A stretch of 64,000 nt of DNA, taken from assembly GCA_024614665.1 (NCBI GenBank), contig GCA_024614665.1_4861.1. One strand, 5' to 3'. Below the pieces are notes generated by a model. It was given only the letters and a program-made list of their open reading frames with translations. It made no database searches and was not told the DNA's origin. Source of the stretch: a phage. Each line of letters starts with the position of its first letter. Within the stretch, counting starts at the first letter, position 1. Shown here piece by piece: positions 8,175 through 60,488 of the stretch. The position numbers and the translations under genes were made by a program.

Positions 8175-8903
8175 TTACCTCATATACAAATCCTCGAGTG
8201 GCTCTGCACGTACCGGATCGACCTGGAGTGCAGAACGGATACCCTGTTTCAGCTCCACATCTGCAATCTTGGCCAACCTGGAAGTTTTGTTCAATGAACC
8301 TGAACGCAGCGGAATAAACTGCACCCGATTCATCAAATCGCTGTCTTTTTTCAGGGTGTAGCGGAAATACGTCCGCGGGTCGCCAACCTTACGCTGTGTG
8401 TGGGCAGCATAACAGTCAGCGGTGATCTGGTCGTTAAAGACCGTAAAGCCGTTCCACGTCTTAGTGTCAGACAATAGCTCAGCGTCATCTACTGCGGTAT
8501 ACCAGAAAGGCCGGTTGCCGAAGTCGTAGATGTACGAAGCGATGTTGTAGACTGGCGAGGATAGCACTTGCAGCATTCGGTTGGGGAACACCACCGTGCC
8601 GGGGTCAAAACGGAACTCGTAATACGGCACACCCTGAACATCAATTTCCTCAAACGCCGACGGGGTAATTTCAATGAACGTCGTGACGTTCGATACCCCG
8701 TAGGTTTTGCGGTCAGTGGAGATAGCGAAAATACCGACGATTTCTACTTGCGAAGAAATTACCGCCAGCTCTTTAGCCACGAAGCCAACAGGGATGTAAA
8801 TGTAACATCCCCCTTTGGTGATGGTGGCCGTGCCTTGGTCCACTAAATCTGCATGAATTTTCGTCGCGTCACGACGTGCTGTTTCAATGGCGCTCACGAC
8901 CAC
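8175..8903 (-). CDS. hypothetical protein
   Basis: 242-aa ORF, GTG start with AGAGAGG SD. Confidence 0.5.
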   Translation of the reverse strand: MVVSAIETARRDATKIHADLVDQGTATITKGGCYIYIPVGFVAKELAVISSQVEIVGIFAISTDRKTYGVSNVTTFIEITPSAFEEIDVQGVPYYEFRFDPGTVVFPNRMLQVLSSPVYNIASYIYDFGNRPFWYTAVDDAELLSDTKTWNGFTVFNDQITADCYAAHTQRKVGDPRTYFRYTLKKDSDLMNRVQFIPLRSGSLNKTSRLAKIADVELKQGIRSALQVDPVRAEPLEDLYMR

Positions 8904-8912
8904 CTCTCTTTA

Positions 8913-10388
8913 TTAAACTTTGCTCGGTACAGAAATAACCACACCGCCACAAATCCAATCCAGAACGTAGTTAATCATCCAGTCGGTCGCTACCTCGTCA
9001 GGTTGACGGTTAGCAATCATACCACGATGAATATCCAGCATCAGCTTGGACAGCTCGTACTCACCAAAGACTTCGGTTGCTGAGACTTTGATAACGAACT
9101 CTGTGATGTCGGTGGTGTCGGTGGTGAAGAACTCGTCGATGAAGCTCGCCGTCGAACGCTTAATGAGTTCTGGCGTTGCTACCTGACCGTCTTCTCCACG
9201 CCAGAACAGTTCAGGATCGGTTGCATCGATGGCCACGTTAAACGCTTGTTTCAGTGACTGGCGATTGCGTGTTACCCAATTGCTATCGAGCTTAGCACGC
9301 TGAATCGCGGAACGGTGGCTCCAGGCAGCGATGTAGTCTTTCTGTTTTTCCAACAGTGAAGCTACACGCGTGGAGACATTGGTGTCACCTTCGTCCAGTT
9401 GGTAAATAGCGCCCAGTAACGCTTCAACGCTACCGCCTTTTTCCAGATAGTCATCCATAACTTCCTGGCAGATATACACTTTCTTCTCAACGTTGTCGTA
9501 TCCGAAGACAATGTTACCGGTCTTGATGCGGGTAACGATGTTCTGGGTGTAGGCGTAAACCCAGCCGATATAGCTGTAATGCAATGGCAGCATCTGTGCT
9601 TTCCACTGCCCGCTATTCAGACCAGAGTCTTTCCACGGCATTTCCAGGTAGTAGCCAGAAAGCAGCATAAACAGAATGTTGCGTTTCAGGTTGTGTGGTG
9701 CCTGGTCGCTTACCGGAGAGAGCATGTTCCCTTCGAGCATGGTGCGAACGGCTTCGTTGATGCTCCAACCCAGAGCATTCAGCAGTTCTTTAACCAGATC
9801 GTCGTAAGCTTTGCTGCCGGTTTCTGGCAGTTCGATATCAGCAGGGACGTTAGCTTTAACCGCGGGATGTGTGGTACCGTTACCCAGCGGGTTCTCTACC
9901 GAATCAATTAATGCTTGTACCACCGGGGAGTTCAACGCCGGGTCCATACCTGCCGGTACGAGTGCCCACTCTTCGCTAACTGCCTGGTTTTCAATACCCT
10001 GGTTGTTTTGGATGACCAGCTGAACAAACGGCTGAATAACGTTACGGGCAAAGTCAAGCATACCCTGACAACGCTGGATGGCCATGCGCTTCAGTTCAAA
10101 CAGCGTTGGTTCGTGGTCTTCGACGTTCAGCGTTTCTGGACCCGCTGCCGTATCCGCGATTACAGACGCTTCGCCCGTGCCAGCTTGCGGCGTTTTCAGT
10201 GCAGTGATATCCGGCAGAGACTGGAAGAACTCTTCGTCAGTTATCTGCGTATCGAAAACGCTCTGCTGCGTAGTCGCTTTTGTCAGTAGACCAACAGGAC
10301 TGTCAACGTCAGCTTCCAAACGAATCTGGTGTTGTTTCGCCAGTTTCATTGCGTTGGTGACAGCATTAAGTGAATATAAGTTGATCAT
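8913..10388 (-). CDS. hypothetical protein (possibly virion-associated)
   Basis: 491-aa ORF; overlaps the upstream gene stop by 4 nt (coupled). Confidence 0.55.
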   Translation of the reverse strand: MINLYSLNAVTNAMKLAKQHQIRLEADVDSPVGLLTKATTQQSVFDTQITDEEFFQSLPDITALKTPQAGTGEASVIADTAAGPETLNVEDHEPTLFELKRMAIQRCQGMLDFARNVIQPFVQLVIQNNQGIENQAVSEEWALVPAGMDPALNSPVVQALIDSVENPLGNGTTHPAVKANVPADIELPETGSKAYDDLVKELLNALGWSINEAVRTMLEGNMLSPVSDQAPHNLKRNILFMLLSGYYLEMPWKDSGLNSGQWKAQMLPLHYSYIGWVYAYTQNIVTRIKTGNIVFGYDNVEKKVYICQEVMDDYLEKGGSVEALLGAIYQLDEGDTNVSTRVASLLEKQKDYIAAWSHRSAIQRAKLDSNWVTRNRQSLKQAFNVAIDATDPELFWRGEDGQVATPELIKRSTASFIDEFFTTDTTDITEFVIKVSATEVFGEYELSKLMLDIHRGMIANRQPDEVATDWMINYVLDWICGGVVISVPSKV

Positions 10389-53490: not shown

Positions 53491-53524
53491 TAAATAAAAG
53501 GTGGTCAGACCCGAAGGTCTGACC
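53491..53524 (-). terminator. putative intrinsic terminator
   Basis: Hairpin GGTCAGACC TTCGG GTCTGACC with a weak T-tract (ACCTTTTATTT) on the minus strand. Confidence 0.4.
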
Positions 53525-53529
53525 GTTAA

Positions 53530-54123
53530 TTACGCATCGGCCTCAAAGAACGGCTGGTTTGGTACCACTGCGTATTCGAGCACGAACAGATGTTCTGGGG
53601 CATCTTCTGCTCGCCACAGTTTGTGACACGTTGCCAGTTTTTCCAGGATGGTCAGCCAGCTGAGTTGGCAAAACGCACGATCGCCGAAGAACAGTTTCTG
53701 CAGTGCAATTGACACATCCATATACGCCTGTTTGAAGTCGAGCCCTTTATCGTAACCTGCCGACTGTCGCCAGGTCAGCACGAAACCTGCTTCGGTTTCG
53801 TTAATTGCTGGACGTAAACCACAAATCCACATCAGTGCCAGATTAACGTTCCAGTCGAATTCGATACCTTCGTCTTCGTCATCACCAAACGCCGCGTTTA
53901 ACGCGTCGTAGAAACCGTGGTTCTCTGCGAACCATTCGCCGTACTCAACGTAGACCGGTGCTTCGACAGCCTCCCCATCGACTTCACCGATAGGGCGCTC
54001 TACATAGTTCGGGTTGGTTTGAACGTGTTCCGCACCCGCGCGAATCAGTTCGTAGACATCTTTGGCGGTGATTTGTGCGGCTGTTTTAAGACCTGGATAC
54101 CAGGGGCGTGTTACGAGTGTCAA
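53530..54123 (-). CDS. hypothetical protein
   Basis: 197-aa ORF overlapping the endolysin stop by 4 nt. Confidence 0.5.
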   Translation of the reverse strand: MTLVTRPWYPGLKTAAQITAKDVYELIRAGAEHVQTNPNYVERPIGEVDGEAVEAPVYVEYGEWFAENHGFYDALNAAFGDDEDEGIEFDWNVNLALMWICGLRPAINETEAGFVLTWRQSAGYDKGLDFKQAYMDVSIALQKLFFGDRAFCQLSWLTILEKLATCHKLWRAEDAPEHLFVLEYAVVPNQPFFEADA

Positions 54124-54842
54124 AGCAGTGCTCCTTTCATGATGGTGTTATTTGCCAGTAATGTACCGGCCGCAGGTGATATTTTGGTGTACAGCGTATC
54201 CCAGATTTTCTGAAGTTCAGCGACGCGTTGGTCGTGGTCTTCCTTCGCAAAAGCAAGCTGACGTGTTTCAGCTTTCGGTGGCGTCATTTTCGCACCGTAG
54301 AATGCTGCGTCTTTTCGGTAACTGGCCATCCAGCGTTTCCCGACCGGTGATTTCTTTTTAATCATCGCAACAGCAGCACTCTCACCGAAGCGGTAGCCTA
54401 ATGCGATTTCGGCTGTGCTCGGCTTGCGTTTGAGTTGTTTCGTCAGATGATCCTCGATGTGTTTCATGTAAACAGCAGCAAGCTGTACAGCATATTTCGG
54501 TTTATTAAGGTCTGCGTTCTTTGGGATGTTAAGTTGTTTCCCATACAGACGTATCATGGAGCGTTTAGTGCCTGTCGTCATTTGGACAACACTACTAGCA
54601 CTGCTCGATTTATTCTTACCCACGTTTTTATTAAAACGGGATTCACGGTAAATAGTGGTCGCAAGCATCCCGGCGTGTACACCTTGCTTTTGAGATGCGG
54701 AGACGATGAGAGGTTTAATCTCATTGAACTGGTCCTGGATAAGGACAAATTCTTTTTGATGTTTGTTACTGGTGGACTGGTAAGAAGCGTTGCTGTTGAA
54801 TGTGGTCACTGCTACCAGAAGAAATAAAATGGTGCGAAACAT
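54120..54842 (-). CDS. lytic transglycosylase-type endolysin with N-terminal signal peptide or SAR domain
   Basis: Start placed at ATG 54842 (MFRTILFLLVAVTTFNSNA, signal-like) with GGAG SD; SLT-type catalytic region YRESRFN ... SSASSVVQM. Confidence 0.55.
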   Translation of the reverse strand: MFRTILFLLVAVTTFNSNASYQSTSNKHQKEFVLIQDQFNEIKPLIVSASQKQGVHAGMLATTIYRESRFNKNVGKNKSSSASSVVQMTTGTKRSMIRLYGKQLNIPKNADLNKPKYAVQLAAVYMKHIEDHLTKQLKRKPSTAEIALGYRFGESAAVAMIKKKSPVGKRWMASYRKDAAFYGAKMTPPKAETRQLAFAKEDHDQRVAELQKIWDTLYTKISPAAGTLLANNTIMKGALL

Positions 54843-54861
54843 GGATGTTCTCCAAATGGAT

Positions 54862-54906
54862 TTATACTTTTCCGTTCCCAATCCGGGAAGACGGCGCGGA
54901 CGGCAT
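54862..54906 (-). CDS. possible 14-codon upstream ORF (leader peptide) before the endolysin gene
   Basis: AAGGAG then ATG CCG TCC GCG CCG TCT TCC CGG ATT GGG AAC GGA AAA GTA TAA, ending 19 nt before the endolysin ATG. Confidence 0.2.
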   Translation of the reverse strand: MPSAPSSRIGNGKV

Positions 54907-54929
54907 TGTGCTCCTTTGTAATGTGCCCT

Positions 54930-54947
54930 GATAATAATATCTATTTG
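54930..54947 (-). promoter_or_regulatory. AT-rich promoter-like element
   Basis: Minus-strand CAAATAGATATTATTATCAGGG overlapping the 3' end of the macrodomain gene, upstream of the endolysin region. Confidence 0.35.
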
Positions 54948-55441
54948 AAACTTTTTGGGATGATTTTCTCTGCTTCCCTCAGCAGGGTGTCTGGTAAATA
55001 GAATCGATAAGTCTGCTCCGTGTGCTGTAGTCGTTTCTGTAAGTGTATAAAGATTTCCAATCGCTCATGGTAACGTAACCAACCGTTAGCCATCCCTAGG
55101 GGCGGTATCGCAATCCCTCCTTCTAAGTCTTCCCCTAGTCGCGCCAGCGCATCAATGCCGGACGTGACATAGTAAATCTGCGATTTATAGCGAAAATGGG
55201 TTTTAGTAGGAAGGAGTATTACCCCTTCCTCAGGATAACAATAGACCTCACCGATAACGATTTGCTCTTTACGACATTTCTGGCGATAGTCGTTATAAAG
55301 CGATGGGAAGCGTTCTCGGCACGCCAAGGCAATGCCCCTTCCCATCGCACCAACACAGTTAACTGTAACGACCTTGAAGCGCTCAGGCGCGTTAAACAGG
55401 TCGTGGGAGATAATAGCCTCGTCGATCAGTTCGAGTGACAT
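54941..55441 (-). CDS. macrodomain protein, TARG1/DarG-like ADP-ribosyl hydrolase candidate
   Basis: 166 aa; DLFNAPERFKVVTVNCVGAMGRGIALACRERFP and IAIPPLGMANGWLRYHERL parallel human TARG1 segments [34 protein letters not shown] and LSMPRIGCGLDRLQWENV (from memory). Confidence 0.55.
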   Translation of the reverse strand: MSLELIDEAIISHDLFNAPERFKVVTVNCVGAMGRGIALACRERFPSLYNDYRQKCRKEQIVIGEVYCYPEEGVILLPTKTHFRYKSQIYYVTSGIDALARLGEDLEGGIAIPPLGMANGWLRYHERLEIFIHLQKRLQHTEQTYRFYLPDTLLREAEKIIPKSFK

Positions 55442-55640
55442 CTATTGCCATACCCCATTGTGAAATAACCGGAGACTGAAGCAGCGATTCCAGCTCAGTA
55501 AGAACTCTGGCTTTTGCTTCTTCGCGCAACTTACGGACTTCCGGATCAGGTTTGCCTGCGCCCAAATATTGGGGTTCTGTCTGCGGGGTAGGGAAACCAC
55601 AGAAAGAACTAACCATTATTCCGATGATTGTTTTTTGCAT
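55392..55640 (-). CDS. hypothetical small protein with hydrophobic N-terminus
   Basis: 82-aa ORF; overlaps the macrodomain gene start by 50 nt, so one of the two start calls may be wrong. Confidence 0.3.
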   Translation of the reverse strand: MQKTIIGIMVSSFCGFPTPQTEPQYLGAGKPDPEVRKLREEAKARVLTELESLLQSPVISQWGMAIDVTRTDRRGYYLPRPV

Positions 55641-56063
55641 TTAGCTATTCCTTTTCGCCCAGGCATGTACCGCTGACTCGAAACCTTCGTGTTCGATACC
55701 GAGCCGTTTCATTGCCAACATAGTGTTGAGGCTATTCGTAATTTCTTCACGGTAGCGATGGTCATCCATCTTACGCCAACACTTCTCCGGGTCAACGCCT
55801 AAACGCTGGAGTAGATACGCCTCACGCACCATACCAGGCCGCCAGAATTTAGGGCGGGTAATCGCGATTTCAATCATGGGCGTCATGTCCAACGTGTGGG
55901 CGAGAATACTAACCGGCGTTTCCCCAACTTTATCACGTAGCGCTAAACGTAACCACCACTGAACATTTGCTTTGGTTTCAGGTAACAGGTCGTAGAATAA
56001 GGCTGTTTCTTCTTCTGATAAATGATCGTATAGTGATTTTGTTTCGCGAATAGCGGTAACCAT
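55641..56063 (-). CDS. hypothetical protein
   Basis: 140-aa ORF. Confidence 0.5.
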   Translation of the reverse strand: MVTAIRETKSLYDHLSEEETALFYDLLPETKANVQWWLRLALRDKVGETPVSILAHTLDMTPMIEIAITRPKFWRPGMVREAYLLQRLGVDPEKCWRKMDDHRYREEITNSLNTMLAMKRLGIEHEGFESAVHAWAKRNS

Positions 56064-56074
56064 TTTAATGCTCC

Positions 56075-56338
56075 TTAGGGTAAAGTTGCCTCCCAGTCGT
56101 AACGGTGAGGCTCAGGCAGCGTACCAAGCGCTGCTTTAATACACGTACTCAGCGGAGTATCATCGAACGCAACACGCCCGATAGTACCCACGTTGATGTG
56201 TTTTGGATTTACGGGTAAGAACTCCTTCACCCGCTCGTACTCAGCCCAACAGATATCGGTGTTTAAAGCTGAAAACCCAGGACGGTGAAACATAAATAGC
56301 ACTCCTCGCGTAAAAATACCCCACTCATAGTGAGGCAT
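56075..56338 (-). CDS. hypothetical protein
   Basis: 87-aa ORF. Confidence 0.45.
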   Translation of the reverse strand: MPHYEWGIFTRGVLFMFHRPGFSALNTDICWAEYERVKEFLPVNPKHINVGTIGRVAFDDTPLSTCIKAALGTLPEPHRYDWEATLP

Positions 56339-56363: not shown

Positions 56364-56852
56364 CTATGCTACCGCAGTCCTTAAAGGTTCATCTGCTTCC
56401 GCAGGAACCTGCTTCGTAAATTCAAGCCATTGTCCGTCTGTAGAGACGGTCTTGCCAAAGCCGCGAGCGGTAAAGAACGCAATACCAGCTTCCTGGCAAG
56501 CGTATATTCCCCCATGCGCACTGGTGAACCGTTCATTCACATCAAGCGCATCAAAAATCTGCGTCATCGTTTTGCGACGGCGTGCCATTTCGGACACGAA
56601 CATCGTACGAATCTTCAGAACCCCGGCGATTACGCGATAGAGACAGTAACCAATAGGGGTGCCCCCTTCCAGAGCAACGCAAGCACGGTTCCCCGCCAAC
56701 AGTTTCTCCAGAGTGAGGTTCGGAATCTCACCTTTTTCGATATGGAGTATGGTACGTTGGTGGTTCAGAAATTTATAATGCAGCCCCAACAGCTGTTTAT
56801 TTTGTGCTTCCGTTAAATCTGAGGATGAGGTAAGAATGACAATTTCGGCCAT
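56364..56852 (-). CDS. hypothetical protein (possible acyltransferase-like fold, unverified)
   Basis: ORF; start placed at ATG 56852 (MAEIVIL) with AGGA SD. Confidence 0.45.
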   Translation of the reverse strand: MAEIVILTSSSDLTEAQNKQLLGLHYKFLNHQRTILHIEKGEIPNLTLEKLLAGNRACVALEGGTPIGYCLYRVIAGVLKIRTMFVSEMARRRKTMTQIFDALDVNERFTSAHGGIYACQEAGIAFFTARGFGKTVSTDGQWLEFTKQVPAEADEPLRTAVA

Positions 56853-57013
56853 GAGCTGAATTCCTAAGTGAGCTTTCACCTGCAATGAAAGCGTGTGACG
56901 AAGAATTGCGTTTGTGTTTTCTTAAGTTTACCGGTAAAGCTTAGCGGTGTATACCGCCACAGATGAAGACCAGTTCTCTATCGGAACTATGTCTTTAATC
57001 AGCAACGACGTTT

Positions 57014-57800: not shown

Positions 57801-57988
57801 GACCGTTCCCCTACATCTCGCCACTCACAACGTGTGTCGAACAGACGTTCTTTAAGAGCAGCAGCTAAATAAACAACCGCAGCGATAACCACTACGGTTG
57901 CACAAAAGGAGAGGTACAGTACCATCACAACAAACTGAAGGAACTGAAAACCCCACCAAGCCCATAAGCGCCAACCTTTATGATGCAT
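57797..57988 (-). CDS. small membrane protein (63 aa, two TM helices), cassette member a
   Basis: ATG lies within the last codons of the SbcC-like gene (11-nt overlap); hydrophobic WWGFQFLQFVVMVLYLSFCATVVVIAAVVYLAAAL. Confidence 0.4.
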   Translation of the reverse strand: MHHKGWRLWAWWGFQFLQFVVMVLYLSFCATVVVIAAVVYLAAALKERLFDTRCEWRDVGERS

Positions 57989-60488
57989 ATTTGATTATTA
58001 CCCCTTCGTTATAAACCGGTGGAAGCGTTACACCTTCTGGCTCGACGACACAGTAGGTGGCTTCGTTAAGTTTAGAATGAACTTCCGCTTCATGCGAAAC
58101 GACCAGTAATTGAGAAAACTCTCCCGACAACGCCAACGATTTAATGAAGTTAACTAATCGGTTTTTGTGTTCTTCATCCATGCCTTCAGATGGTTCATCC
58201 AATAACAAAGGATAGTTTTGTAAACCAAGCGCTTTATACGCCGTTAAACGAAACATCATGTTAAAGATAATACGCTGTGCTTTTGAACCTTTCTTCACAT
58301 CCGGTACCAGTTCTACATGGTCTTTTAATCGCACAGGGAACGTGTAGTCCAGATCCCCGTCGGTTAGATCGCACGGAATAACCTGCATCGGATATGCCCA
58401 CACCATTTCGATATACCGATTCATTAAATCCATGATGCGGGTAATCGCAGCGTAGAAGTAACGTCTCAGTAAACCTTTTTCAGGAGAAACCGCATTAATA
58501 ATCAGTCTGGCATGGTGGTGTTCTTTGAGCAACTCAGCTTGCTCTTTTTCCAGTTCCGCTAAACGTGCAATAGCCCCTTCCATTTGACGAAACCGTTCAC
58601 GAGCTGAAGTATACGCATCGAGCTTCGCTTCGCGGCGGTTTAACAACTCACGAACTACGACGTTGTTAACGGAGATGTTCATTTCCGATACCAGATGTTC
58701 GTAGCCCTTTTGGAAACGTTCGATTGCTTCTTTGGTTTGTTGCAGTTGGGTGGTTTCGCGTTCCAGCTCATTGGCTTGTCTGCGGTATTCTATCAGTCGA
58801 CGGTTAGCCCCGTCTAGTTGTGAACGGATATGTTCAATTTTCTGGCTCAGAGCACCATCAACATTACCTACTGCGGCAACAGCCTCTTGCCATTCCCGTT
58901 CCGCTGTTGCAAGCTTCGCTGATTGACGCAGATACATCATGGCCGAATCTAACTCTTCGGTAAAGGCACGTGCAATGGCACCATATCGATCCCGCGCCGT
59001 GGTGAAGATATCCAGCTCCTGTAGTTTACGGAAAAACAAACCGACAACGGGATGATTGGAATACGACATGACAATTTCGCGAATCGTACGTAGGCTACGG
59101 ACGTCCTCTTCAATCTCTTTGCGGTCACGCAAAAGACTATCCATTTCGTCTTTCAGCTGTTTTTTCCAACCTTCATTATCGTTGATGGCCTTTTCAATTT
59201 CAGGTAACGACTTACGAATCCCAGGACGGAAACGGTGGTTACACTGTGGACAATCAACTTCTGCAGTTTCTAAGAAGTGTTGACGGTCGTGGTATAAACC
59301 GTGTAGCACATTCTCACAACGTTGCAACTTTTCAGATAGACCCGCAGAGGTTAAATCCATACCCTGTAAACGCTTCTCTAACGCTCCTAGGCGCTCTGTT
59401 GTCTTTAACTGGTCCAGATGCATGGACAACGGTAAATTCCAGTTACAGGCGTCGTTTAACGCGTTCTGAATGCTATCCACGTCGATGCGGGTACCTTCAA
59501 ACAGAGCCGGGAACATCCAGTTCTGTTGGAACGTTGCCAGTTCCTGTTTTAAGCTGTCGATTGTTTGTTTTAGACCGGTATGGTTACGCATCAGATACGC
59601 TTGACGCGACTCCTCATCCAGTAGCTGTGACAACTCTTTATTGTACATGTTGCATTCAGTTTCAGCGGAGGCAGCTTGCTCACGCCAGGCAACCACACGA
59701 CTTTGAAACTCGTTAATCAGTTCGTCAGAAGGCAGAACGCCATAACGTTCCATAATGAGTTTTACAGCCGGTTGCAACGAAGCAATGCGTTTCCGGATAC
59801 TGTCAACCGAAACAGCGTTATCTAAACCGGGCCTTGCTTCAATTGTGCGGTTTAATTCTTGAAGCTCAGCATCGAGTTCTTTCAAACGAACTTCTAAACG
59901 TGCACGATCTTCTTCATCGTCAACGACGCGCATTTTTGCTTCGCCGATTTTTCGTCCGGTGTGTTCGATGGCCCCGCTTAAACTGGAAGCGAGTTTACGC
60001 AAACGTCGATAGCAGCCAACAACGTACGTCAGATCAGATTCTGACATTAACGTAAACCATTTACGACGAACTTCGGTAGTGGCGTCAGTTAATAAGGTCT
60101 CACCATTAATTAACTCTTTGATTTCTTTGGTGATTCCGGTTAATTGCTCCACCATGGAGTTGTAAACTTTGGCGTTTACCGAGTCCACAATGGGGACGCC
60201 TTTGGTGATATTGAAAATACTACAAGACAAAGAAGACCCACGTCGCAGGACTTCAAACTTAAGACGGTCGTCCCCGACTAACGCGTAGTTAGTGTAAGAA
60301 CCACCTTCACGGAATTCAGATTTTGCTGGAGCTAAGGGGAGAAAAACAGATAGGAGGCTTGTTTTACCGCAACCATTCCCACCAAGGATAATGGTAACGG
60401 TTGATTTAAGGGTGAAATCAAACGTTTCGATTTCATGTAACCCCATGCCGGTAAATCCTTTCAAAATGATACGTTCGACCTTGAGCAT
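57978..60488 (-). CDS. Rad50/SbcC-like SMC-family ATPase
   Basis: 836 aa; N-terminal Walker A GGNGCGKTSLL, long central coiled-coil-like region with CPQC zinc-hook-like motif, C-terminal Walker B LLLDEPSEGMD and H-loop-like VVSHE. Confidence 0.6.
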   Translation of the reverse strand: MLKVERIILKGFTGMGLHEIETFDFTLKSTVTIILGGNGCGKTSLLSVFLPLAPAKSEFREGGSYTNYALVGDDRLKFEVLRRGSSLSCSIFNITKGVPIVDSVNAKVYNSMVEQLTGITKEIKELINGETLLTDATTEVRRKWFTLMSESDLTYVVGCYRRLRKLASSLSGAIEHTGRKIGEAKMRVVDDEEDRARLEVRLKELDAELQELNRTIEARPGLDNAVSVDSIRKRIASLQPAVKLIMERYGVLPSDELINEFQSRVVAWREQAASAETECNMYNKELSQLLDEESRQAYLMRNHTGLKQTIDSLKQELATFQQNWMFPALFEGTRIDVDSIQNALNDACNWNLPLSMHLDQLKTTERLGALEKRLQGMDLTSAGLSEKLQRCENVLHGLYHDRQHFLETAEVDCPQCNHRFRPGIRKSLPEIEKAINDNEGWKKQLKDEMDSLLRDRKEIEEDVRSLRTIREIVMSYSNHPVVGLFFRKLQELDIFTTARDRYGAIARAFTEELDSAMMYLRQSAKLATAEREWQEAVAAVGNVDGALSQKIEHIRSQLDGANRRLIEYRRQANELERETTQLQQTKEAIERFQKGYEHLVSEMNISVNNVVVRELLNRREAKLDAYTSARERFRQMEGAIARLAELEKEQAELLKEHHHARLIINAVSPEKGLLRRYFYAAITRIMDLMNRYIEMVWAYPMQVIPCDLTDGDLDYTFPVRLKDHVELVPDVKKGSKAQRIIFNMMFRLTAYKALGLQNYPLLLDEPSEGMDEEHKNRLVNFIKSLALSGEFSQLLVVSHEAEVHSKLNEATYCVVEPEGVTLPPVYNEGVIIKYAS

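Follow-up and report, generated by a model that had tools for sequence, protein, structure and literature searches.

A stand-alone DarG-type macrodomain in an SPN3US-like jumbo phage, a probable member of the AdfM family of counter-defence proteins

Introduction

What does a macrodomain protein do when a phage encodes it on its own? The question is raised by a gene at positions 54941-55441 of a 64,000-nucleotide (nt) stretch of phage DNA (GenBank assembly GCA_024614665.1, contig GCA_024614665.1_4861.1), the whole of which we call the window. An initial annotation, made from the raw sequence, had taken the 166-residue product for a TARG1-type macrodomain and had proposed that it acts against DarT, the ADP-ribosylating toxin of the DarTG anti-phage systems. 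The analysis reported here argues, by analogy with characterized relatives, that the gene probably encodes a member of the AdfM family, a stand-alone DarG2-type macrodomain of a nucleus-forming jumbo phage which would remove DarT2-made ADP-ribose from DNA. An anti-DarTG2 role is already known for this family, and the gene (ACQ60_gp070) already carries the RefSeq name "macro domain-containing protein"; by sequence, it is one more putative member of a family whose function came into print in 2025-2026.

A constrained gene with a DarG-type macrodomain product

The gene, which we call the macro gene, lies on the minus strand, with its ATG at 55441 and its stop codon ending at 54941. The open reading frame (ORF) of the initial annotation, which gave no strand, is borne out exactly, as is the product length of 166 amino acids (aa). 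It is the orthologue of SPN3US_0196 (ACQ60_gp070), and the whole protein is a single macrodomain. This is a real, constrained gene and not a chance ORF. The ORF is intact, and the product 98-100% identical, across more than 20 SPN3US-like phages; the homologue in Erwinia phage Asesino is 69.3% identical over 100% of the length, and clear full-length homologues reach the Erwinia and Cronobacter jumbo phages. Comparison with the Asesino gene gives a ratio of nonsynonymous to synonymous substitution (dN/dS) of about 0.10, with 0.20 of nonsynonymous sites (pN) and 0.71 of synonymous sites (pS) differing, the latter being saturated.

The profile searches and structure prediction that the initial annotation had proposed as checks both find a macrodomain. 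Among defence and NCBIfam families, the protein matches DarG profiles and no others: the PADLOC DarG profile at 4e-32, aligned over profile positions 6-147 of 329, and the NCBIfam antitoxin_DarG model (NF048014) at 9.7e-31 and 107.3 bits, over positions 7-150 of 338, so that the match is confined to the N-terminal half with the macrodomain. PHROG 335, labeled "phosphatase", is matched at 6.6e-30. Among sequences in the PDB, the best matches are the M. tuberculosis DarG macrodomain (5m3i, E 1.9e-20) and T. aquaticus DarG (5m31/5m3e, 8e-19), with T. africanus DarTG (7omu) next. An AlphaFold2 model of the protein is a confident single domain (predicted local distance difference test score, pLDDT, 93.6; predicted template modeling score, pTM, 0.90), and its top structural matches are DarG macrodomains and then TARG1. 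The macrodomain fold is thus confirmed and unambiguous, and DarG is clearly nearer than TARG1, with identities of 30-32% and 16-18%, respectively. That the protein is a macrodomain was correctly seen at the outset, while its nearest relative is DarG, with TARG1 the more distant.

The closeness to DarG stops short of identity. Strict assignment as DarG is ruled out, as the NF048014 score of 107.3 bits compares with an equivalog cut-off of 250 bits, the C-terminal domain is missing, and there is no darT neighbor.

Catalytic and ligand-binding residues

The residues on which catalysis depends in DarG are retained. In T. aquaticus DarG, Lys80 is the essential catalytic lysine, in the same position as that of TARG1, and the K80A mutation inactivates the protein; N22 is second in importance, and the ligand is contacted by G117, G119, N120 and G121 (PMC5179494). 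In the macro protein, the equivalent lysine is Lys80, within a P-T-K-x-H motif (codon at 55202..55204, minus strand, as are all the codons given here), corresponding also to Lys78 of the PhiKZ AdfM and to the catalytic lysine of TARG1. Asn28 (55358..55360) is equivalent by alignment to N22 of T. aquaticus DarG and N23 of PhiKZ AdfM, where the N23A mutant is less active (PMC13309987). Neither N28 nor K80 varies among the 54 homologues, and the same holds for T26, T79, G116 and G120, which match ADP-ribose contacts of DarG. The predicted ADP-ribose-gripping loop, G116-M-A-N-G-W-L122 (55076..55096), corresponds to G117-L123 of T. aquaticus DarG, and by column counts G116, N119 and G120 are conserved within it. 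Compared with DarG, most of the residues that contact ADP-ribose are either the same or conservative substitutions. A catalytic Lys/Asp had been expected in the initial annotation; the lysine is there, invariant and aligned with that of TARG1, and the signature that we find conserved is the DarG-type Asn/Lys pair, N28 and K80.

Relationship to the AdfM proteins of chimalliviruses

At the nucleotide level, the window shares 96-99% identity with the SPN3US-like jumbo phages of Salmonella and Escherichia, and corresponds to about 229.1 to 165.4 kb of SPN3US in reverse orientation. ICTV and NCBI taxonomy place Seoulvirus, to which these phages belong, in the Chimalliviridae, the nucleus-forming phages. 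For SPN3US there is a report of a chimallin-like lattice (PMC9365700), and "gp244" of this phage is named in the literature as a highly diverged chimallin, at 10% identity. The numbering in GenBank disagrees with that of the literature gp244: SPN3US_0244 is only 240 aa long and matches a "virion structural protein" PHROG, and its neighbor SPN3US_0243 is 491 aa.

Morgan et al. (Cell Rep 2026, April 2026) gave the name AdfM to chimallivirus macrodomains, with PhiKZ gp104, PhiPA3 gp108, Goslar gp83 and Asesino gp217 as members (PMC13309987). Sequence comparison indicates that the macro protein is orthologous to these named AdfMs. Asesino gp217 (YP_009290835.1) is the 69% identical homologue mentioned above, and its gene stands in the same order as the macro gene, namely SMC/SbcC-like, GNAT, macro and transglycosylase. 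PhiKZ gp104 matches the macro protein with 36% identity and an E value of 2e-25, its sole significant match in the window. All of the AdfM features that lend themselves to computational examination are found here, including the DarG2-like fold, the Asn/Lys pair, the stand-alone domain, a host phage in the Chimalliviridae, and the orthology itself. In common with the chimallivirus AdfMs, the macro protein consists of one DarG2-like macrodomain standing alone (about 160-185 aa across the group), in which the catalytic Asn and Lys are the same.

What is known of the relatives is substantial. PhiKZ gp104 strips DarT2-made ADP-ribose from a DNA oligonucleotide, an activity impaired in N23A, and fully rescues E. 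coli from DarT2 toxicity; PhiKZ and PhiPA3 need their AdfM on DarTG2-expressing hosts, with losses of 3-6 logs without it (PMC13309987). The AdfMs of PhiKZ, PhiPA3 and Asesino localize to the phage nucleus in a PicA-dependent manner, protection depends on this import, and import is specific to cognate phage-protein pairs (PMC13309987). As to the hosts, E. coli has thymidine-modifying DarTG2 systems (PMC7003065), and a darTG2 plasmid has been used in E. coli K-12 (10.1101/2025.11.20.689424).

A proposed route of counter-defence

That the macro protein has this enzymatic activity, protects against DarTG2 and enters the phage nucleus, we infer from these relatives. On infection, host DarT2 is released and adds ADP-ribose to thymidines in single-stranded phage DNA; such marks depress replication and, in PhiKZ, block genome packaging. 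The pocket of the macrodomain is predicted to bind ADP-ribosyl-thymidine through T26, N28, T79 and the loop G116-G120, with F83 (55193-55195) at the position of the Trp proposed to stack on the thymine base. Lys80 would then cleave the bond between ribose and base, with Asn28 positioning the substrate, and normal DNA would be restored. Because the C-terminal DarT-binding domain of DarG is missing, the protein would work by catalysis only, with no sequestration of DarT, as a catalytic "orphan antitoxin". It is encoded by a lytic phage and not by a bacterial toxin-antitoxin operon, and this orphan antitoxin would therefore serve for counter-defence. Import into the phage nucleus, which contains the DNA, is probable by analogy with the 69% identical Asesino orthologue. 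This import layer was missed in the initial annotation, whose proposal of a stand-alone phage macrodomain acting as an anti-DarT factor otherwise gains support from the Asesino orthologue gp217, from synteny, from N28 and K80, and from the published AdfM experiments on relatives.

Comparison with known systems helps to place the protein. Unlike DarG2 (5M31, 5M3E, 5M3I, 7OMU), it has no C-terminal DarT-binding domain and no adjacent darT gene, and is encoded by a lytic phage. TARG1, or C6orf130 (4J5Q, 4J5S), belongs to the same macrodomain subclass and has its catalytic lysine in the same position, but is more distant than DarG. The name AdfM has also been given to T4 Tk.4, the loss of which sensitizes the phage to DarTG2 (HIDEN-SEQ preprint 2025, 10.1101/2025.11.20.689424). 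Tk.4 is likewise a stand-alone phage macrodomain and follows the same functional logic, but it belongs to a different macrodomain lineage, and T4 is not nucleus-forming. We reject equivalence of the two, as BLASTP gives an E value of only 0.01, with 27% identity over 63 residues, and Tk.4 has no Lys at the PTK position. AdfN (T4 gp30.3) is also an orphan antitoxin-like enzyme that takes ADP-ribose off DNA and counters DarTG, although its fold is that of NADAR proteins and it acts specifically on the guanine marks of DarT1. AdfA and AdfB are phage counter-defences against DarTG as well, but they are direct inhibitors of DarT and not hydrolases. The macro protein is not specifically a member of the TARG1, Poa1p or Tk.4 families.

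Weighing the assignment

Several observations speak against an AdfM role of this kind. The direct functional assays are all on relatives outside Seoulvirus, and identity to PhiKZ gp104, the sole biochemically tested AdfM, is only the 36% given above. Two pocket residues depart from both DarG and the PhiKZ protein: W121, invariant in the SPN3US/Erwinia clade, stands in the ADP-ribose-closing loop where the others have Gly, and at position 83 the clade mostly has Phe where the others have the Trp proposed for thymine stacking. The preferred substrate could therefore be a different one. The homologues of SPN3US_0244 and SPN3US_0243 that we looked at as chimallin candidates (8175-8903 and 8913-10388, both minus strand) gave no Pfam hit, no hit to PDB sequences, solved chimallins included, and no informative PHROG hit. 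A chimallin gene is thus not confirmed by sequence in the window, and we have therefore taken the nucleus-forming status of the phage from ICTV/NCBI taxonomy and the literature. Lastly, the Pfam Macro family (PF01661) scores 21.7 bits (E 2.1e-4), marginally under its gathering threshold of 22.0 bits. We do not take this score to argue against the macrodomain assignment, on which DarG-specific profiles, sequence hits in the PDB and the structure are in agreement; a precomputed PF01661 hit is, moreover, present on many of the homologues.

The clade-specific changes W121 and F83 may affect substrate tuning within the AdfM family. The calculated isoelectric point (pI) also differs, being near 7.7 for the macro protein and 5.05 for PhiKZ gp104. 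Together, the two residues and the pI shift could mean that a different nucleic-acid ADP-ribosylation is reversed, or that the protein acts outside the phage nucleus; we regard it as unlikely that the SPN3US/Erwinia branch has in fact diverged in substrate (to another DarT motif or base, or to RNA) or works outside the nucleus. The same two residues leave room for another substrate in a reading that steps outside the AdfM family altogether, in which the protein is a TARG1-like hydrolase of ADP-ribose on protein or RNA, reversing host defence transferases (for example CmdT, acting on mRNA) or a phage-encoded transferase. In structure, TARG1 comes second to DarG among the relatives, it has the catalytic lysine as well, and some records label the gene "protein-ADP-ribosylation protein"; we give this reading only a small chance. 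A slightly slimmer one attaches to activity on a small molecule, as an ADP-ribose-1''-phosphate phosphatase or O-acetyl-ADP-ribose deacetylase, which might serve as a clean-up step for NAD-dependent RNA repair or break down immune signals derived from ADP-ribose (those of Thoeris, for instance). Comparative genomics has led to proposals of such roles for jumbo-phage Macro domains (PMC7824862), and the "phosphatase" label of PHROG 335 and the "Appr-1-p processing" label of many phage records point the same way. There are sequence matches to Poa1p too, but these are weak (E 0.05-0.13 over 39 residues), and Poa1p-like macrodomains are not the nearest relatives.

Partner genes for RNA repair or ADP-ribosyl transfer were sought in the RefSeq annotation of SPN3US from 165 to 205 kb and its GenBank annotation from 205 to 232 kb, jointly spanning the window. 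The annotation of that span, where many genes are hypothetical, includes no ART, DarT, Tpt1, 2H, RNA ligase, NADAR or Nudix gene, and an RNA-repair or ADP-ribosyltransferase partner pathway is thus unsupported. Pfam and PHROG scans of the nine ORFs around the macro gene show no DarT either; among the products are SLT, GNAT and SbcC-like proteins and proteins without assigned function. It is very improbable that the protein is a non-catalytic reader of ADP-ribose, or a decaying remnant without a current role. The gene is non-core, in that only about half of chimalliviruses have an AdfM (PMC13309987), and PhiKZ was little affected when gp104 was knocked down in a permissive host; against this stand the strong purifying selection (dN/dS 0.10), the invariance of N28, K80 and the Gly-rich loop, the intact ORF in more than 20 phages, and the catalytic activity of the PhiKZ orthologue. 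The TARG1-like, small-molecule and non-catalytic readings are less well supported than removal of DarT2-made ADP-ribose from DNA by an AdfM, since the similarity is to DarG in particular, the lysine does not vary and partner genes are absent.

If the macro protein is such an AdfM, then the initial annotation recovered a genuine counter-defence gene from raw sequence. SPN3US-like jumbo phages are biocontrol candidates for Salmonella and E. coli, and the gene matters for phage-host range, since carriage of AdfM predicts resistance to DarTG2-bearing strains. Labels such as "phosphatase", "Appr-1-p processing protein" and "hypothetical protein", which other records attach to this gene (along with the "protein-ADP-ribosylation protein" already mentioned), deserve correction.

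Genomic neighborhood

The macro gene sits within a run of co-directional genes. Upstream lie an SbcC/SMC-like ATPase gene (57978..60488) and a GNAT acetyltransferase gene (56364..56885), with several small ORFs between the two and three ORFs without assigned function between the GNAT gene and the macro gene. Downstream by 59 nt, also on the minus strand, is a gene for an SLT-domain transglycosylase, a putative endolysin (54120..54881; Pfam SLT 2.2e-06, PHROG 4067 2.2e-57), followed by a co-directional 197-aa ORF that precedes a terminator-like hairpin (53503..53524, minus strand). The hairpin, found by a consensus scan and so a pattern match only, has a 9-bp stem with 6 G-C pairs and a T-rich tail, and it may end a co-directional unit of the macro, SLT and 197-aa genes. 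There are 10 terminator-like sites in the region, against 3.8 +/- 2.3 in shuffled sequence. A sigma-70 promoter scan of the region gave no more hits than shuffled sequence, a result that is not meaningful because the phage has its own RNA polymerases.

The gene had been described initially as lying beside the lysis genes. A single SLT transglycosylase gene is indeed directly downstream, while the other neighbors are without function by Pfam and PHROG, and no holin or spanin was identified among them. The macro-SLT pairing occurs in Asesino as well (gp217-gp218), and was seen here only in that phage and the SPN3US-like phages. We reject a functional link of the macro gene to lysis, the SLT gene alone among the neighbors being lysis-related; adjacency to a transglycosylase says nothing about the function of the macro protein.

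Two genes upstream of the macro gene there is a variable accessory gene. At 56064-56115, between the ORFs 55641..56063 and 56075..56338, the window is without a segment of about 513 bp which in SPN3US encodes SPN3US_0193 (ACQ60_gp073), a protein of 172 aa that belongs to PHROG 14325 and to no Pfam family. Besides SPN3US, the phages SEGD1, EC001, Proteus phage 7 and JN03 carry the segment, and it is absent from SaP7 and from the SPFM and SPLA phages listed. Closer to the macro gene, its 5' end shares 50 nt (55392-55441) with the 3' end of an upstream 82-aa ORF (55392..55640; no Pfam or PHROG family). This overlap seems real, because the N-terminus of the macro protein is conserved and confidently modeled. 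On the other side, a 43-aa ORF (54800-54931, plus strand; SPN3US_0197, ACQ60_gp069) lies on the opposite strand between the macro and SLT genes, overlapping the 5' end of the latter, and is probably a spurious gene call.

Some database records of the macro gene also call for comment. In the entries for the Salmonella phages SPFM1, SPFM6 and SPFM14 (P0037, P0043 and P0050), the segments of the macro protein appear in reversed order with a foreign tail; these look like annotation artefacts of mis-joined coding-sequence pieces and not real variants. Assemblies labeled Salmonella enterica include homologues with 99% and about 62% identity, on contigs of 79-243 kb (P0001, P0014 and P0016). It seems that complete jumbo-phage genomes end up in the assemblies of bacterial isolates, whether in a carrier state or as contamination.
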